64,000 nucleotides of DNA from Actinomycetota bacterium. GTDB taxonomy: Bacteria; Actinomycetota; Acidimicrobiia; Acidimicrobiales; Ilumatobacteraceae. Where the stretch lies: positions 256,659 through 320,658 of the forward strand of contig JAUSLV010000011.1 in NCBI GenBank assembly GCA_030645495.1. The letters run 5' to 3'. How positions within the stretch are numbered: the first letter of the stretch is position 1; every line of letters begins with the position of its first letter. Below, piece by piece: positions 1,684-52,310 of this stretch. The notes beneath the pieces are model-generated. The model saw nothing but the letters and a program-made list of their open reading frames with translations. It ran no database searches and was not told where the DNA came from. The position numbers and the translations under genes were made by a program.

Positions 1684-1814
1684 TCGACCACTGAGTCACC
1701 CGCCGGGCCACGTGTTCGGCACCGCACATCGAAAGAGGGGTACGGCGGGCGGCCGTGCCCCTCTTCCGCGTCTGCAGCAGGTGCGCGACGGGCTGCGGCG
1801 CTACGGTGCCCTCC

Positions 1815-2468
1815 ATGATTCTGGTGGGGCTGACGGGCGGTATCGGGTCGGGCAAGTCGACGGTGAGTGCGGCCTTGGCCGAGCGCGGCGCGGTGATCAT
1901 CGACGCCGATGCGATCGGCCGCGAGCTGCAGCAACCGGGCCAGCCACTGCTGCGCACGCTGGCCGATCGGTTCGGCGAACAGATCATCACGGCCGATGGC
2001 GCGCTCGATCGGCCGGCGCTGGCAGCCATTGCCTTCGGCGACCCCGACGCGCTGAAGGACCTGAACGCGATCGTGCATCCCGTCATCGGTGCCGAGGTGG
2101 GGCGGCGCATCGTCGAGGCTGCGCACACCGAACAGGTGGTGGTGATGGACATTCCGCTGCTCACCGAGAACCCTCGTGAGGGCCTGCAGGGCATCATCGT
2201 GATCGACGTGCCGGAGGAGATCCAGGTGCATCGCCTGGTGACCTTCCGCGGGTTCACCGAGGCCGACGCCCGCGCCCGCATCGCTCAGCAGGCCAGCCGT
2301 GAAGCGCGGCTGGCCACTGCCACGTTCGTGATCGACAACAGCGGCGACCTCGCCGCGCTGGCGCCGCAGATCGAGGCGCTGTGGCAGTGGGTGACCGCCC
2401 TGCCGCAGCTGGCTGCGGGCGAAACCGGCCTGCGCGCCGACGGTGTGGGCGGCGGCGCTACCAGCTGA
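1815..2468 (+). CDS. coaE: dephospho-CoA kinase (kinase domain only, no C-terminal UPF0157 extension)
   Basis: The P-loop sequence MILVGLTGGIGSGKST starts at the internal ATG at 1815. The protein ends ...GVGGGATS* inside a 25-bp repeat. Confidence 0.9.
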   Translation: MILVGLTGGIGSGKSTVSAALAERGAVIIDADAIGRELQQPGQPLLRTLADRFGEQIITADGALDRPALAAIAFGDPDALKDLNAIVHPVIGAEVGRRIVEAAHTEQVVVMDIPLLTENPREGLQGIIVIDVPEEIQVHRLVTFRGFTEADARARIAQQASREARLATATFVIDNSGDLAALAPQIEALWQWVTALPQLAAGETGLRADGVGGGATS

Positions 2469-2475
2469 GCCGGGC
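2450..2475. repeat. Direct repeat copy 1 (GGCGGCGCTACCAGCTGAGCCGGGC), covering the last 6 codons, stop and 3' flank of coaE
   Basis: It is an exact 25-nt match to 3348..3373, read directly from the sequence. Coordinates are +/-1. Confidence 0.9.
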
Positions 2476-2516
2476 GACGAACGAAGCTGCGCGCACCCCT
2501 TCGGTACAGTGACGCT

Positions 2517-2786
2517 GTGACTCCCGCTCCCGCGTCTGCCATCCCGGCCGACACCACCGCTGAAGCGTGGCGGGCGCAGATGCGTGCCCTGGCGGCCATG
2601 ACCCCGGCACAGCGCCTGGCGATGTGGGAGCAGCTGAACGACCAGCTCGAACAGATGGAGGTGCACGCCGTCAGCCGCCAGCACCCCACCTTCAGCGAAC
2701 ACGAACTGCAGGTTGAACTCATTCGGCGTCGGCACGGCGAGGCCCTCACCCACGCGTGGCTCACCAACGCACCGCGGGTCACTTGA
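2517..2786 (+). CDS. small helical hypothetical protein (89 aa) with a C-terminal RRRHGEALTH (Rx6H, HEPN-like) motif; candidate partner or antitoxin of the downstream nucleotidyltransferase
   Basis: The ORF has a GTG start. Its stop overlaps the next gene's ATG (TGATG at 2784-2788), suggesting translational coupling. No confident family assignment is made. Confidence 0.55.
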   Translation: MTPAPASAIPADTTAEAWRAQMRALAAMTPAQRLAMWEQLNDQLEQMEVHAVSRQHPTFSEHELQVELIRRRHGEALTHAWLTNAPRVT

Positions 2787-3364
2787 TGGGCCTGGTCGCT
2801 GCTTTTCGCCACGTCGCAACTGCGCTCGAAGCAGCAGCAGTCGACTACGTGGTCGTCGGATCAGCAGCCGCAGCAGCCTGGGGTGTGATTCGCTCCACCC
2901 GAGACATCGATCTGGTGATGGTGGTGACGGAAGGTTCGGCCGCCGCGTTGTTGGAAGGTTTGATCGACGCCGACTTCTATGTCCCCGTCAACGCGGCCGC
3001 CGAAGCACTTGCCGGCGGAGGATCGTTCAATGTCCTGCACCCGGCCACGGGTGGGAAGGTCGACGTCTTCGTCTGCCCGGCGAACGACCAGTTCGAGGTC
3101 CAACGCATTGCGCGCCGGGTTCGGATGGAGGTGTTCGGCGTCGGCTCTTGGGTTGCGACACCAGAGGATGTGGTGTTGTCGAAACTCCGTTGGCGGCTCG
3201 AATCGCAATCCGACGTGCAATGGCGCGACTGCGTCGAGCTTGCTGCGGTGCACACCCTCGACCGCAGGCATCTTCGCGTGTGGGCCGAGCGCCTCGGGAT
3301 CACTCCCGACCTCGACGCGTTGCTCGATCAGGTCGACACCGCTGGTGGCGGCGCTACCAGCTGA
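2786..3364 (+). CDS. nucleotidyltransferase-fold protein (GrpB/UPF0157-like or MNT/MenT-like), 192 aa
   Basis: The sequence VVVGSAAAAAWGVIRSTRDIDLV fits the hG[GS]x9-13DhD nucleotidyltransferase motif. The C-terminal PEDVVLSKLRWRL resembles GrpB. The protein ends ...GGGATS* in the second copy of the repeat. Confidence 0.6.
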   Translation: MGLVAAFRHVATALEAAAVDYVVVGSAAAAAWGVIRSTRDIDLVMVVTEGSAAALLEGLIDADFYVPVNAAAEALAGGGSFNVLHPATGGKVDVFVCPANDQFEVQRIARRVRMEVFGVGSWVATPEDVVLSKLRWRLESQSDVQWRDCVELAAVHTLDRRHLRVWAERLGITPDLDALLDQVDTAGGGATS

Positions 3365-3373
3365 GCCGGGCCA
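3348..3373. repeat. Direct repeat copy 2 (GGCGGCGCTACCAGCTGAGCCGGGC)
   Basis: It is an exact 25-nt match to 2450..2475. It spans the 3' ends of the nucleotidyltransferase gene (+) and of the GNAT gene (-). Confidence 0.9.
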
Positions 3374-4367
3374 ACGCCTCGCCCTCCACCACGTCGCCGG
3401 TGGGCACGAACCCGAAGCGGAGGTAGAGGGGCCGCGGGCTGCCGACGTGTTCGCGGTACGACACGGTGAGGCTGCGAGCGCCGGCCGCCTGGGTGCGCTC
3501 GGCCACCAGTTGCAGTACCTGTGTGCCGATGCCGCGCCGTTGGTGCCGACGGTCGATGAGCAGGCGCCACAGATATGGCTCGTCGGTGAGGTCGTTGCGA
3601 TCCGCCAATTGCACGAAGCCCACCGGCTCGCCATCGGCCTCGATGCCGAGCGACTGCGACACGAATGGCAGGCCGCGTACCTGTAGTGGCACCGCTGCCT
3701 GGGCGAGCGATGCCTCCACCGGGCGCACGAACCGTTGTTGCGAGTGGTGTGTCGCCAATGCCAGGTACGCATCGATGTTGTCGCCATCGAGGGCGACCAA
3801 CCGAACACCGCTCGCCGGCGACAGGGTGCGCTCGCGCCATGCCGCGCGCTGCGGGGCGAGGAGCGAGTAGCGCAGGTCGTCGACCCAGTCGCCGCCGGAG
3901 ATGAACGCATCGTGCACCAGCGACTCGAACTGGAACCCCACCGACTCGACCACCCTCATCGACGCGACGTTGCGCGGGTCGAGCGACGCCTCGAACCGGT
4001 GCACGCCGTGTGCGCACAGCGCATCGACCACAGCGGCAACAGCCTCGCCGGCGAAGGCGTGGCCCTGATGGGCGCGAGCGATCGTGTACCCGACCGTCGC
4101 TGTGCGGCCGTCGACCGACAGGCCGACCGCGACGTCGCCCACCATCTGCCCTGCGTGGTCGACCGCCAACTGCACCCACACCCCTGGTGACGGACCATTG
4201 AGTGCCTCCTGGCTGGCGGCCAGCGCATCCCCGTGACCCTCGGTGTAGGGGAGCGGCCAGTCCTGGTAGTGAGCGACTTCTGTGTCGTTGCGGTAGCCGA
4301 CGAAGGCGGGCAGGTCGGCGGCGCGCAACATCCGCACCGTCAGCCTGGTCGTGTGCAGCGGGAGCAT
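3354..4367 (-). CDS. tandem-GNAT N-acetyltransferase (two GNAT domains)
   Basis: Two acetyl-CoA binding cores are present, including RRGIGTQV, plus a RimL-like N-terminal domain. The supplied ORF extends to 4793 but that part is antisense to uvrB. A start at 4367 or 4400 is chosen. Confidence 0.7.
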
Positions 4368-4393
4368 GACGCGACGATAGCGATGGCACGGCA

Positions 4394-4407
4394 CGAACAT
4401 CCGTTCG
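4394..4407. promoter_or_regulatory. candidate LexA/SOS box CGAACATCCGTTCG (GAAC-N4-GTTC palindrome) immediately upstream of uvrB
   Basis: It matches the actinobacterial SOS-box core TCGAAC-N4-GTTCGA. It lies in the divergent GNAT/uvrB intergenic region. Confidence 0.45.
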
Positions 4408-4415
4408 GCGCTATC

Positions 4416-6443
<2,028 letters not shown>

Positions 6444-6446
6444 GCG

Positions 6447-8114
6447 TCAGACCGCGTTGGCCAGCGGCGCCGACATCATCGGGCCCAGCGAGCCGGCCGG
6501 CTGGGGGACCGCAAACAGGTAGCCCTGGCCCAGCGTGCAGCCGATGCCCACCAGGTGCCCTCGCTGCATCTCGGTCTCGATGCCCTCGGCCACCACGGTG
6601 AGGTGGCCCTTCGTGGCCACTTCCACCATCGCCTGCACCACCGTGCTGGCGCGGTCACCAGCAACCACCTGGGCGGTGAATCGCCGGTTCAGCTTCACGC
6701 CATGGATCGGAAGCGCCGACAGCGTCTCCAGCGAGGCGAACCCCGAGCCGAAGTCGTCGAGCATCAGTTGCACGCCGAGCTCACTGACCTGTGCCAGTTC
6801 TTGGCGCAGTTGCACGGGCAGGTCGGACGCCTGGCGTTCGCTGATCTGCACCATCACGGACCCCGGCCGAATGTCGTGTTTGGCCAGACCTTCGACGATC
6901 GAGTCGAGCACGCTGGTCTCGACCTGTTTGTCGAACTCGAACGTCACGGCCAGCTGGAGCGAGGGGGAGATGTGGCGGAACTCACTGAGCACCGAGAGCC
7001 CGTCGTCGAGCATGCGAACGAACAGCGAACGCAGCAGTCCGGCTTCGCGCAGGGTCGGCAGGAACTCGTCGGGTCCGCGGACGCCTTCGTTGGTCTGCCA
7101 CCTGGCCAGCGCTTCGATCGCCATCACCTCGCCGGAGTGCAGGTTCACGATCGGTTGGAAGTAGGCCTTGATCTCGCCCGCTTCCATTGCATCGACGAGC
7201 GCTGCGGTGTCGGCGGATTTGGCCGTGTCGGTCTCCAGCGGGTGGCGAGTGCTGTCGATCGCGGCTTCTGCGGCGGCGAGTGCGCCACCGAGCCCGGTCT
7301 CGGGTCGGCGTCGGCCGACACCGGTGGCAACCGCCGTGCCCACCACGCCGACCCTGCCGAGTGCCTCGTGAATGCTGCGTGTGAGGCGCTCGGTCGCTTC
7401 TTCGTCGACGCCGATCAGGAGGGCGCCGAACCGATCGCCGGTGAGGCGTGCGGCGTAGTGCCGGCCGGTCAGTACGGCTCGTACTGCAGCGCCGGCGATA
7501 CGCAGTTCCTCGTCACCGGCCGAGTGGCCGTGGAGCTCGTTGTAGTGCTTCAGCTCGGTCAGCTCGATGACGATCACCGATGCCTGCTCGCCGAACTCGA
7601 GGCAGAAGTGGTCGTCGACGCGGACCCGACGCTCCCACCCTTGGCGAGTGCCGAGGCCGGTGAGCGGATCGGTCTCGCCGTCGGCGATCTCGTTGAACCG
7701 ATGCTGGTCGGCGAGGAGGATCTCCGTGTCGGCGAGGGCGCCCAGCAGACTGGCGAACACCTGCAGGGTGGGGGCGATGCTGGCGATGCTGGCCGCCCGC
7801 TCGCGCGGGTCGAATCCGACGAGCTCGCCGAACGGGCTGCCGTCGGGGCACCGCACCGGTGCGCACGCCCAGTGGTCGCTGCTGCGGCTGATCGGGGCGG
7901 GGAGTGTCTCGTGTACGTGAATCTCGCCACGTGGGTCGAACACCGCAAGGGTGTAACTGCCCTCCGCGTCGTACCGGCACAGTGCCCACGTTCCGAGATC
8001 GGAGTGCTCCGAGAGGTGTTGGAGTACGGCCTGCGTGGCGCGACCGAAGTTGCTGTCGGTGCTTGCGCCGATGCTCATGTACTTACTATCGGTGCCGATC
8101 ACGCCCAACTTCAA
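6447..8114 (-). CDS. signalling protein with sensor N-terminus, degenerate GGDEF (TGDRF) and intact EAL domain (likely c-di-GMP phosphodiesterase)
   Basis: [15 protein letters not shown] opens the GGDEF domain and [11 protein letters not shown] replaces RxGGDEF. The EAL domain shows YFQPIV, EALARW and DDFGSG motifs. Confidence 0.75.
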
Positions 8115-50860: not shown

Positions 50861-52270
50861 ATGAGCGAGCAACTGCAGTCACTCACCGCCGGCGAACGGA
50901 TCGTGTTCGGCGGCGACCGGTTCACCACCGTCACCCCCGAGCTCGCCGAGGCCTTTCGCGCCGGCGACCGGCTCGTGGTGGTGCACGAGACCGGCGACCT
51001 GCTGCACCTGCCGGCGGCCGAGCACGCGATCGCCGCTGCCGCCGTGGGGCGCGCCACGGCCGCGTTCAGCGCGTTGTCGGCCGTGGCCGACGAGCAGATC
51101 TCCGACTTCTTCGAGCGCTTCGCCGCGCTGCTCGCCGACGACGACGTGTTCGCTGCCATCGCCGCTGCGAACGTTGCCGACGTGCAGCGGGCCAACGAAC
51201 GGGGGAGGGCCACCGGGCGGCTGACCCTCAGCCCGAAGATGCGAGCCGACATGATCGACGGTCTGCGCACGTGGCGCGACATCCCCACGCGGCGCAGCCA
51301 GCAGGTGGGTGAGGTGCTCCACGAGCAATGGACCGTGCAGCAGTGGCGCGACCCGCTCGGAGTGGTGGGGTTCGTGTTCGAGGGCCGGCCCAACGTGTTC
51401 GCCGATGCCACCGGCGTGCTGCGCACCGGCAACACGGTCGTGTTCCGGATCGGTAGCGACGCGCTCGCGACGGCGCGAGCGATCATGGCTGCGGCGGTGC
51501 AACCCGCACTGGCGGCCGCCGGCCTGCCCGATGGCGCCGTCGCGCTGGTGGACAGCGCGGCCCACGCTGCCGGGTGGGCACTGTTCGCCGACACCCGGCT
51601 CGGCCTGGCAGTTGCCCGCGGGTCGGGCGCGGCGGTCGCCCAACTGGGCGCGGTCGCCCGGCAGCACGGGGTGCCGGTGAGTCTGCACGGCACGGGTGGG
51701 GCGTGGTTGGTGGCCGGAGCCACTACCGACGCCGAGCGGTTCCGGCTGTCGGTGCTGCACTCGTTGGATCGCAAGGTGTGCAACACGGTGAACGTGGTGT
51801 GCGTGCCGCGCAGCCGCGAACACGATCTCGTGCCCGCCTTCCGAGCGGCCGCCGGCGAGGCGGCTGCCGCAAGGGGAGTGGTACCGATCATCCACGAACT
51901 TGCGCCGCACGACCCGCTGCTGGCGCACGAGTTCGAGTGGGACACCGTGCCCGAGGTGGCGCTGCTGATCGTGGATGACGTGGCCCACGCGGTGCAGCAG
52001 TGCAATGCATACAGCCCCCACTTCGTCGCGTCACTGCTGAGCGCCGACCCTGCCGAGCACGAATGGTTCTACCGCGCCGTCGACGCACCCTTCGTGGGTG
52101 ACGGCTTCACCCGCTGGGTCGATGGGCAGTTCGCCCTGCTACAGCCCGAGCTCGGCCTGTCGAACTGGCAGGCCGGTCGCCTGTTCGGTCGCGGCGGGGT
52201 GCTGTCGGGCGATTCGGTGTACACGGTGCGCCTGCGCGCGCGGGTCGCTGACCCAGGTCTGCATCGCTGA
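50861..52270 (+). CDS. aldehyde dehydrogenase-superfamily protein, divergent glutamate-5-semialdehyde dehydrogenase (ProA)-like
   Basis: VGFVFEGRPNV resembles the ProA IYESRPNV motif. The catalytic Cys region is VCNTVN. No proB is adjacent. Confidence 0.5.
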   Translation: MSEQLQSLTAGERIVFGGDRFTTVTPELAEAFRAGDRLVVVHETGDLLHLPAAEHAIAAAAVGRATAAFSALSAVADEQISDFFERFAALLADDDVFAAIAAANVADVQRANERGRATGRLTLSPKMRADMIDGLRTWRDIPTRRSQQVGEVLHEQWTVQQWRDPLGVVGFVFEGRPNVFADATGVLRTGNTVVFRIGSDALATARAIMAAAVQPALAAAGLPDGAVALVDSAAHAAGWALFADTRLGLAVARGSGAAVAQLGAVARQHGVPVSLHGTGGAWLVAGATTDAERFRLSVLHSLDRKVCNTVNVVCVPRSREHDLVPAFRAAAGEAAAARGVVPIIHELAPHDPLLAHEFEWDTVPEVALLIVDDVAHAVQQCNAYSPHFVASLLSADPAEHEWFYRAVDAPFVGDGFTRWVDGQFALLQPELGLSNWQAGRLFGRGGVLSGDSVYTVRLRARVADPGLHR

Positions 52271-52310
52271 CCGCGGTCCCCGCACGACATGCGCGAACTA
52301 TCGTGCAGCC

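Follow-up and report, generated by a model that had tools for sequence, protein, structure and literature searches.

A putative MenAT1-type toxin-antitoxin cassette inserted between coaE and a convergent acetyltransferase gene in Ilumatobacteraceae

In a 64,000-nt stretch of DNA from an Actinomycetota bacterium of the family Ilumatobacteraceae (assembly GCA_030645495.1, contig JAUSLV010000011.1, positions 256,659 to 320,658; hereafter the window), two overlapping open reading frames (ORFs) lie between coaE and a convergent GNAT acetyltransferase gene. The first encodes a small helical protein and the second a nucleotidyltransferase (NTase). We assign this pair, as a new member, to the known MenAT1 kind; it is neither a fragment of CoaE nor a HEPN system. 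In our judgement it is probably a toxin-antitoxin system like MenAT1, with putative toxicity and neutralisation predicted from homology; a specific tRNA target appears less certain than the toxin-antitoxin assignment itself. The two genes form a compact, horizontally inserted cassette whose distribution is patchy and mobile. An earlier reading made from the letters of this DNA (the sequence-only reading) had offered a MenA/MenT-type module, an inverted HEPN/MNT module or a fissioned CoaE domain as explanations. The first of these was supported, with MenT1 being the best match by sequence profile and by fold, the active-site residues conserved and the small-protein family overlapping PF18993.

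Results

The nucleotidyltransferase resembles MenT1

The 192-amino-acid (aa) NTase belongs to the Pfam family DUF6036 (PF19502), which it matched over residues 17-146 with 27.7 bits against a gathering cut-off of 23.6 (E 2.7e-6). A precomputed PF19502 annotation is carried by many of its homologues, of which a word search returned 328, about 185-203 aa in length, and a family scan of 1.84 billion cluster representatives gave 9,692 at E<=0.001 and 3,476 at E<=1e-10. The catalytic signature is G25-S26-x13-D40-I41-D42, a wider spacing than the GS-x11-DID given by the sequence-only reading. Conserved motifs in an alignment of 38 homologues were VVGS-x(5)-WG-x2-R-x-T-R-D-[IV]-D, GGKVD-F, EDVVLSKL-WR and QWRDC-E, with T38, D42, K133 and D148 invariant and D40 at least 90% conserved. 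Across loci from several phyla, R-x-T-x-D-x-D was present in 75 of 78. The genome search, which gave at least 561 hits, used the K-L and QWRDC motifs as patterns, which makes their conservation at those loci partly circular; the T/D motif played no part in that search.

When the profile of the 38 homologues was searched against the PDB, MenT1 (8an4_A) came first (E 1.2e-5, positions 6-142). The AlphaFold model of the NTase had a predicted local distance difference test score (pLDDT) of 93.5 and a predicted template modelling score (pTM) of 0.89, with residues 189-192 below 50 and disordered. In a Foldseek search of the PDB with this model, ranks 1-5 were all MenT1 (8an4, 8an5 and 8rr5; E 8.5e-8, template modelling (TM) score 0.68-0.69), aligned at full length over about 200 columns, and ANT(2'')-Ia, JHP933, TM1012 and LnuA followed. 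Beyond the NTase core, the model includes a helical domain at the C-terminus that bears the K and D motifs known from MenT/AbiEii toxins. In the alignment, R36, T38, R39, D40 and D42 correspond to R37, T39, R40, D41 and D43 of MenT1, and K133 to K137, while D148 corresponds to D152 by motif position only. The substitutions D41A, K137A and D152A each abolish MenT1 toxicity and T39A leaves it toxic (PMC10435456); T39 is the residue that is auto-phosphorylated upon MenA1 binding (PMC11375011).

A plasmid search gave only six distant NTase matches (34-37% identity), in cyanobacteria and Herpetosiphon, all of them without the first 32 residues. The matches on CP000876.1, NZ_CP040298.1, NZ_LR882935.1 and others span residues ~33-182, and a DUF433 annotation overlaps the one on the Herpetosiphon plasmid, where the partner protein may be a different one. 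An NCBIfam search with the NTase and the small protein yielded nothing useful.

The small protein accompanies the nucleotidyltransferase

The two ORFs of 89 and 192 aa overlap in TGATG, as the sequence-only reading had stated; their coordinates were confirmed, and homologues and the ratio of non-synonymous to synonymous substitution rates (dN/dS) show both to be real. Compared with 78%-identical orthologues at locus L083, the NTase had a dN/dS of 0.10 and the small ORF one of 0.22, values that indicate purifying selection on both. Over its first 21 codons the small ORF had a value of 0.12, in support of a start at GTG 2517. In the NTase frame the longest ORF begins at GTG 2756; homologues begin at ATG 2786.

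The small protein had been described as all-helical, and its model indeed consists of four helices (pLDDT 89.9). A word search with it found only four close homologues. A hidden Markov model of the family was built from 51 upstream ORFs, and 25 loci outside the build provided an independent test. A homologue lies directly upstream of the NTase gene, on the same strand, in all 76 loci with enough upstream sequence; the four others of the 80 end at contig edges. PF18993 ('Rv0078B-related antitoxin') was matched by 16 of the 51 family members (best E 1.2e-9), it is annotated on most of the 120 profile matches listed, and the 78%-identical orthologue P0121 carries it. The MenA1 chain 8an5_C was a weak match only (E 0.049 in the profile search of the PDB; Foldseek rank 6), and the other PDB matches of the single-sequence and profile searches were mostly spurious additive ones to designed or TPR repeat proteins. 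Two motifs are conserved in the family, P-x-D-T-(S/T) at residues 10-14 and (G/A)(V/I)RRRHP(E/D)(Y/F) at residues 51-59. The D-T of the former (window 2517-2560) is nearly invariant and lies ahead of the region aligned with MenA1 and PF18993.

The small protein and the NTase always occur together and are sometimes fused. Among the 149 best NTase cluster representatives, 20 are single polypeptides of 240-300 aa with the small-protein domain N-terminal (for example P0277, P0291, P0292, P0304, P0305, P0324, P0370 and P0385), and P0291 matches both PF18993 and PF19502. At loci L087-L092 (1146-1560 in L087) the NTase has lost residues ~12-79, including the catalytic motif, is frameshifted and abuts the gene of a transposase-type helix-turn-helix (HTH) protein; the small gene is intact and in L087 is 78% identical to that of the window. 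These loci would be the picture of a decayed toxin beside a retained antitoxin, which we term toxin-like decay.

The cassette was inserted where coaE and the GNAT gene converge

A 28-nt direct repeat encloses an 896-bp unit in the window; it is a duplication of the region in which coaE and the GNAT gene, converging, overlap at their 3' ends. The two copies (2448-2475 and 3344-3371; spacing 896 nt) are identical at 27 of 28 positions, 25 nt of them in an exact run, and the 64-kb window contains no further copy of this exact 25-mer. The last seven coaE codons and the stop codon fall within the left copy, and the last GNAT codons in the right copy, on the opposite strand, read ...ARLSW followed by a stop.

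The closest syntenic genome that we found is an Ilumatobacteraceae metagenome-assembled genome (MAG), locus L003, in which rpsA (96.5% identical), coaE (77%), the GNAT gene (68% over 341 aa) and uvrB (95%) are syntenic with those of the window. In L003 a short coaE abuts the GNAT gene directly, with nothing between, and the single-copy junction (L003 4640-4680) aligns with the window on either side, with the left flank as far as the repeat and with the right flank starting at the repeat. The cassette comprises window 2476-3343 plus one repeat copy (~0.87 kb) and was inserted where coaE and the GNAT gene converge. The target duplication is at least 28 nt (~36 nt in L083), and both host genes kept their native ends. 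Because the NTase reads into the duplicated coaE tail, it ends in GGGATS and its last four residues are disordered.

The same insertion, with a repeat of ~36 nt and a 78%-identical NTase, is present in L083-L086 and L093, and therefore predates the divergence of the window and L083. Only in this lineage, the window's own, does the pair lie at the coaE 3' end. The sequence-only reading had asked whether the pair co-occurs away from coaE; it does, being kept in 76 of 76 loci, and coaE is nearby in only one of 80 genome loci, L003, where the pair lies beyond the GNAT gene. The L003 cassette (5729-6567; 62-69% identical) occupies the spacer that separates uvrB from the start of the GNAT gene. The corresponding spacer of the window (~4367-4416) has no insert, so that within 2 kb each genome shows the empty counterpart of the other's insertion site. 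Around the L003 cassette no target duplication could be made out clearly. Elsewhere, the L001 cassette lies between aminotransferase and ferrochelatase genes, and that of L087-L092 follows an amidohydrolase gene. A metagenome scan with the 21-mer core of the repeat for empty-site alleles produced no empty allele, one more filled site (L093) and two chance matches.

Flanking repeats and tRNA genes at other cassettes

Flanking repeats were sought by local alignment of the upstream and downstream flanks of 64 loci. Significant direct repeats were found in eight of these, window included, and the seven others span several phyla (Table 1). Since the repeat sequence differs from site to site, the repeats come from the target; their length and variability exceed what classical transposase target-site duplications would show, and there is no recombinase gene within the cassette. 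Cassettes adjoin tRNA genes, three different ones, in 5 of 60 loci scanned, and the nearly identical cassettes of L012/L021 and L014/L016 lie at different tRNA genes. No tRNA duplication was found downstream of the cassettes that follow a tRNA gene (L014, L016 and L036). A literature search on toxin-antitoxin cassettes flanked by long direct repeats returned nothing relevant.

A probable promoter of a leaderless transcript

Immediately before the start codon, cassettes at three different genomic sites (window/L083, L087 and L003) share the conserved sequence CCCCTTCGGTACAGT. In the window, CGG-TACAGT occupies 2502-2510 and is followed by 6 nt and then GTG, a placement that makes a leaderless mRNA likely for the cassette. 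Among actinobacterial cassettes, 21 of 25 have a TANNNT ending 6-8 nt before the start codon, as against a background of 1%. In M. tuberculosis, TANNNT is the dominant -10 motif, often after CGN, and of the 37 toxin-antitoxin gene pairs whose primary transcription start site has been mapped, 32 are leaderless (PMC3898074).

Discussion

By homology with MenT1, the free NTase would add nucleotides to the 3' acceptor ends of tRNA and so block aminoacylation and translation (PMC10435456; PMC11375011). The small protein, by homology with MenA1, would neutralise the NTase through direct binding, and it probably also promotes an inactivating auto-phosphorylation of the active-site residue T38. A regulatory role would fit T38, because this threonine is invariant although the equivalent MenT1 variant T39A is still toxic. 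The cassette might serve in addiction, in a stress response or in defence against phages. The pair resembles MenA1-MenT1 (Rv0078B-Rv0078A of M. tuberculosis; 8AN4, 8AN5, 8RR5). Both systems have the order small helical antitoxin then ~190-aa NTase, a bi-lobed NTase fold with a beta-sheet core and a C-terminal four-helix bundle, and the R-x-T-R-D-x-D motif together with the K and D active-site residues. The partner family overlaps PF18993, which is named after Rv0078B, and in neither system does a partner protein have a recognisable DNA-binding domain. Unlike MenA1-MenT1, the family of the window has its centre in Acidimicrobiia and in many phyla outside the actinobacteria, and some of its members are fusions.

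Several observations weigh against this assignment. The window NTase is only ~20% identical to MenT1 and falls in DUF6036, not in AbiEii (PF08843). Conversely, a 140-residue MenT1 fragment taken from a printed alignment matched PF08843 (E 2.6e-7) and gave no PF19502 match. DUF6036 and AbiEii are sister families at ~20% identity, and the substrate of the NTase could therefore differ. The MenA1-contact residues of MenT1, F28, E35 and F38, are A27, V34 and S37 in the window NTase, and because they are not conserved the toxin-antitoxin binding geometry may differ from that of MenAT1. The window small protein itself is below the PF18993 threshold (12.4 bits vs. 27.1; E 0.16). At 89 aa it is longer than the 68-aa MenA1; it has in addition a conserved segment at the N-terminus, P-x-D-T-S together with helix 15-27, that aligns ahead of the MenA1 start. 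The cassette is not in a defence island, no match was found among 50,697 phage records, and the fusions would also fit a non-toxic enzyme with a regulatory domain.

This last possibility is the most probable of the alternatives, although we regard it as unlikely. The NTase would then modify a small molecule, in the manner of ANT or Lnu enzymes, or another protein, and the small protein, as its regulatory subunit or adaptor, would tune or target it. The fold does not reveal the substrate, ANT(2'')-Ia, LnuA and other minimal NTases are among the fold matches (E 1.9e-4 to 4e-3), one fusion protein has a weak Aminoglyc_resit match, and fusions at the frequency seen here are more typical of enzyme-regulator than of classical toxin-antitoxin pairs. 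However, MenT1 is clearly the best match by sequence profile and by fold, and the partner belongs to a family that overlaps the MenA1 antitoxins. A small gene placed first, overlapping codons, a leaderless promoter and a patchy mobile distribution likewise argue for a toxin-antitoxin pair, as do the retention of the small gene in L087-L092 while the NTase decays and the invariance of the threonine that matches the MenT1 phospho-acceptor. Somewhat less probable again is an abortive-infection or anti-phage role of the AbiE type, in which the NTase would be released upon infection; such a role would be compatible with a toxin-antitoxin mechanism. The cassette is horizontally mobile, the NTase has a weak PADLOC match to AbiEii (E 0.011), its only AbiEii signal, and MenT toxins are placed in the AbiEii/DUF1814 superfamily (PMC7450476). 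AbiEi/AbiEii of Streptococcus agalactiae and MenT3/MenT4 (DUF1814) do share with the window NTase the Pol-beta-type NTase superfamily and a layout of four motifs, G[SG]-x9-13-D-x-D, a third acidic residue, K-L and R-D-x-x-[DE]. Those toxins, however, are larger (~290 aa), and their antitoxins are unrelated, a winged HTH protein in the case of AbiEi and a kinase-like protein in that of MenA3; MenT3 (6j7q) reached only rank 17 in the fold search with the window NTase (TM 0.40). Pfam gave no AbiEii match for the NTase at E<=1, and the 89-aa helical partner has no HTH or AbiEi match in Pfam or PADLOC. The neighbours rpsA, coaE, uvrB and uvrA are housekeeping and not defence genes, and the empty phage search counts against this role as well.

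The two remaining proposals of the sequence-only reading fared much worse. An inverted HEPN/MNT (type VII) module, with the small protein as a HEPN RNase toxin and the NTase as an AMPylating antitoxin, is highly improbable. Type VII systems are also two-gene modules with a minimal NTase, and the window small protein has R-x(4-6)-H strings near its C-terminus, among them the RRRHGEALTH that had been likened to the HEPN Rx4-6H motif. The string is present, but the family does not conserve its histidines: of 51 members, 9 have a histidine at the position of H73 and 2 at that of H79, and 13 contain an Rx4-6H of any kind within their final 35 residues. The small protein has no HEPN match in Pfam, and the NTase, which is the antitoxin in type VII systems, carries here the additional C-terminal domain with the K and D motifs of the MenT/AbiEii toxins. 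Least probable of all, to the point of being negligible, is that the NTase is a detached GrpB/UPF0157 domain of a once-fused CoaE and the small ORF a linker remnant. Mycobacterial CoaE fused to GrpB/UPF0157 also has an NTase-fold protein encoded on the coaE 3' side, and the sole support in the window is this position together with the shared C-terminal GGGATS, which the direct repeat explains. The GrpB-like C-terminal helix that had been claimed for the NTase found no counterpart: Pfam gave no GrpB (PF04229) signal at E<=1, and the 50 best Foldseek PDB matches contained no GrpB chain. Nor is the small ORF a remnant, being conserved in every one of the 76 loci and under purifying selection. The adjacency to coaE arose by insertion with target duplication, is confined to the window's lineage, and is contradicted as a fission by L003, where the short coaE meets the GNAT gene and the pair lies elsewhere.

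The repeats and tRNA genes at other loci raise a more speculative idea about the MenAT1-like cassette as an element. The DUF6036/PF18993 pair might be a minimal mobile unit of ~0.9-1.0 kb from promoter to stop. Such a unit would insert repeatedly, at tRNA genes, at terminators and at the 3' ends of genes, and would duplicate 19-100 bp of target without a recombinase of its own. We consider this doubtful; if true, toxin-antitoxin cassettes would either insert by a route not yet described or be mobilised in trans. Excised circles might integrate in the Campbell manner via short homology, or actinobacterial non-homologous end joining might fill in widely staggered breaks.

The likeness to MenT1 offers a functional hypothesis for the large and uncharacterised DUF6036 family, of which we found no mention in the literature searched, by linking it to the tRNA-modifying MenT1 toxins. 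It would also widen the MenA1 family considerably. Only 21 MenA1 homologues were found in the MenT1 study (PMC10435456), and the family seen here partners such NTases across many phyla, with some members fused to the NTase. The window in addition preserves an unusually clear scar, a cassette between two convergent overlapping housekeeping genes whose 28-nt duplication kept both gene ends and gave the toxin gene its stop codon, with a matching empty site in a relative. Finally, there is a correction to annotation. In the public annotation of an 'Actinomycetota bacterium' MAG, a 99%-identical NTase (protein P0001) is called as 149 aa from V44 (window 2915-3364), which removes the GS...DxD catalytic motif, and the collection entry P0122 has the small ORF called from an internal ATG, at 68 aa.

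Locus organization and additional observations

The gene order in the window is rpsA (274-1683), coaE, the two-ORF pair, the convergent GNAT gene, uvrB and, farther on, uvrA, which is a conserved actinobacterial arrangement (Table 1). The 479-aa GNAT ORF of the program-made ORF list is over-extended, with M143 as the likely start.

Table 1. Coordinates of the features of the window, and of flanking repeats and adjoining tRNA genes at other cassette loci (repeats are given by the positions of their two copies).
Locus	Feature	Coordinates	Strand	Description
window	coaE	1812-2468	+	dephospho-CoA kinase, short form without added C-terminal domain; upstream flank; Pfam PF01121, E 4e-55, residues 4-180 of 218
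window	direct repeat, left copy	2448-2475		GGCGGCGGCGCTACCAGCTGAGCCGGGC; contains the end of coaE with its stop and, on the opposite strand, a duplicate of the GNAT 3' end that no longer functions
window	cassette 5' region	2482-2516	+	conserved; holds -10 hexamer TACAGT (2505-2510); probable promoter of leaderless mRNA
window	small 89-aa four-helix protein	2517-2786	+	putative antitoxin, MenA1/PF18993 family; GTG 2517, TGA 2784-2786
window	192-aa DUF6036 NTase	2786-3364	+	putative MenT1-like toxin; ATG 2786, TGA 3362-3364
window	direct repeat, right copy	3344-3371		provides NTase tail and stop (TGA 3362-3364) and true GNAT 3' end and stop (CTA 3354-3356)
window	two-domain GNAT acetyltransferase	3354-4367	-	Pfam Acetyltransf_3 and Acetyltransf_1; downstream flank, convergent with coaE and cassette
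window	flanking repeat	2448/3344		25-28 nt
L055	flanking repeat	3890/5093		~100 nt
L012	flanking repeat	5539/6585		64 nt, degenerate; includes tRNA-Ala 3' end
L075	flanking repeat	5420/6657		43 nt
L023	flanking repeat	5645/6543		38 nt, exact; includes terminator-like hairpin
L072	flanking repeat	5677/6596		34 nt
L021	flanking repeat	5588/6633		20 nt; includes tRNA-Ala 3' end
L045	flanking repeat	5670/6565		19 nt
L012 and L021	tRNA-Ala GGC	6632-6706		
L014 and L016	tRNA-Leu AAG	~5522-5608		
L036	tRNA-Arg TCT	5712-5787		

The GC content did not discriminate the cassette (63-65%) from its surroundings, being 68-72% in coaE and the GNAT gene but 63-65% in rpsA and uvrB. No second copy of the cassette was found within the 64-kb window. 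A weak tblastn match at 52076-52273 (-) was rejected as spurious, since it is antisense to a long ORF at 50861-52270 (+); judged by eye, this ORF presumably encodes a proA-type reductase. Just upstream of uvrB, at window 4394-4407, lies the palindrome CGAACATCCGTTCG (GAAC-N4-GTTC), which is conserved in L003 (~6585-6598) as CGAACGTCTGTTCG and which we take to resemble a LexA operator of the Cheo-box type, as would be expected for an SOS gene.

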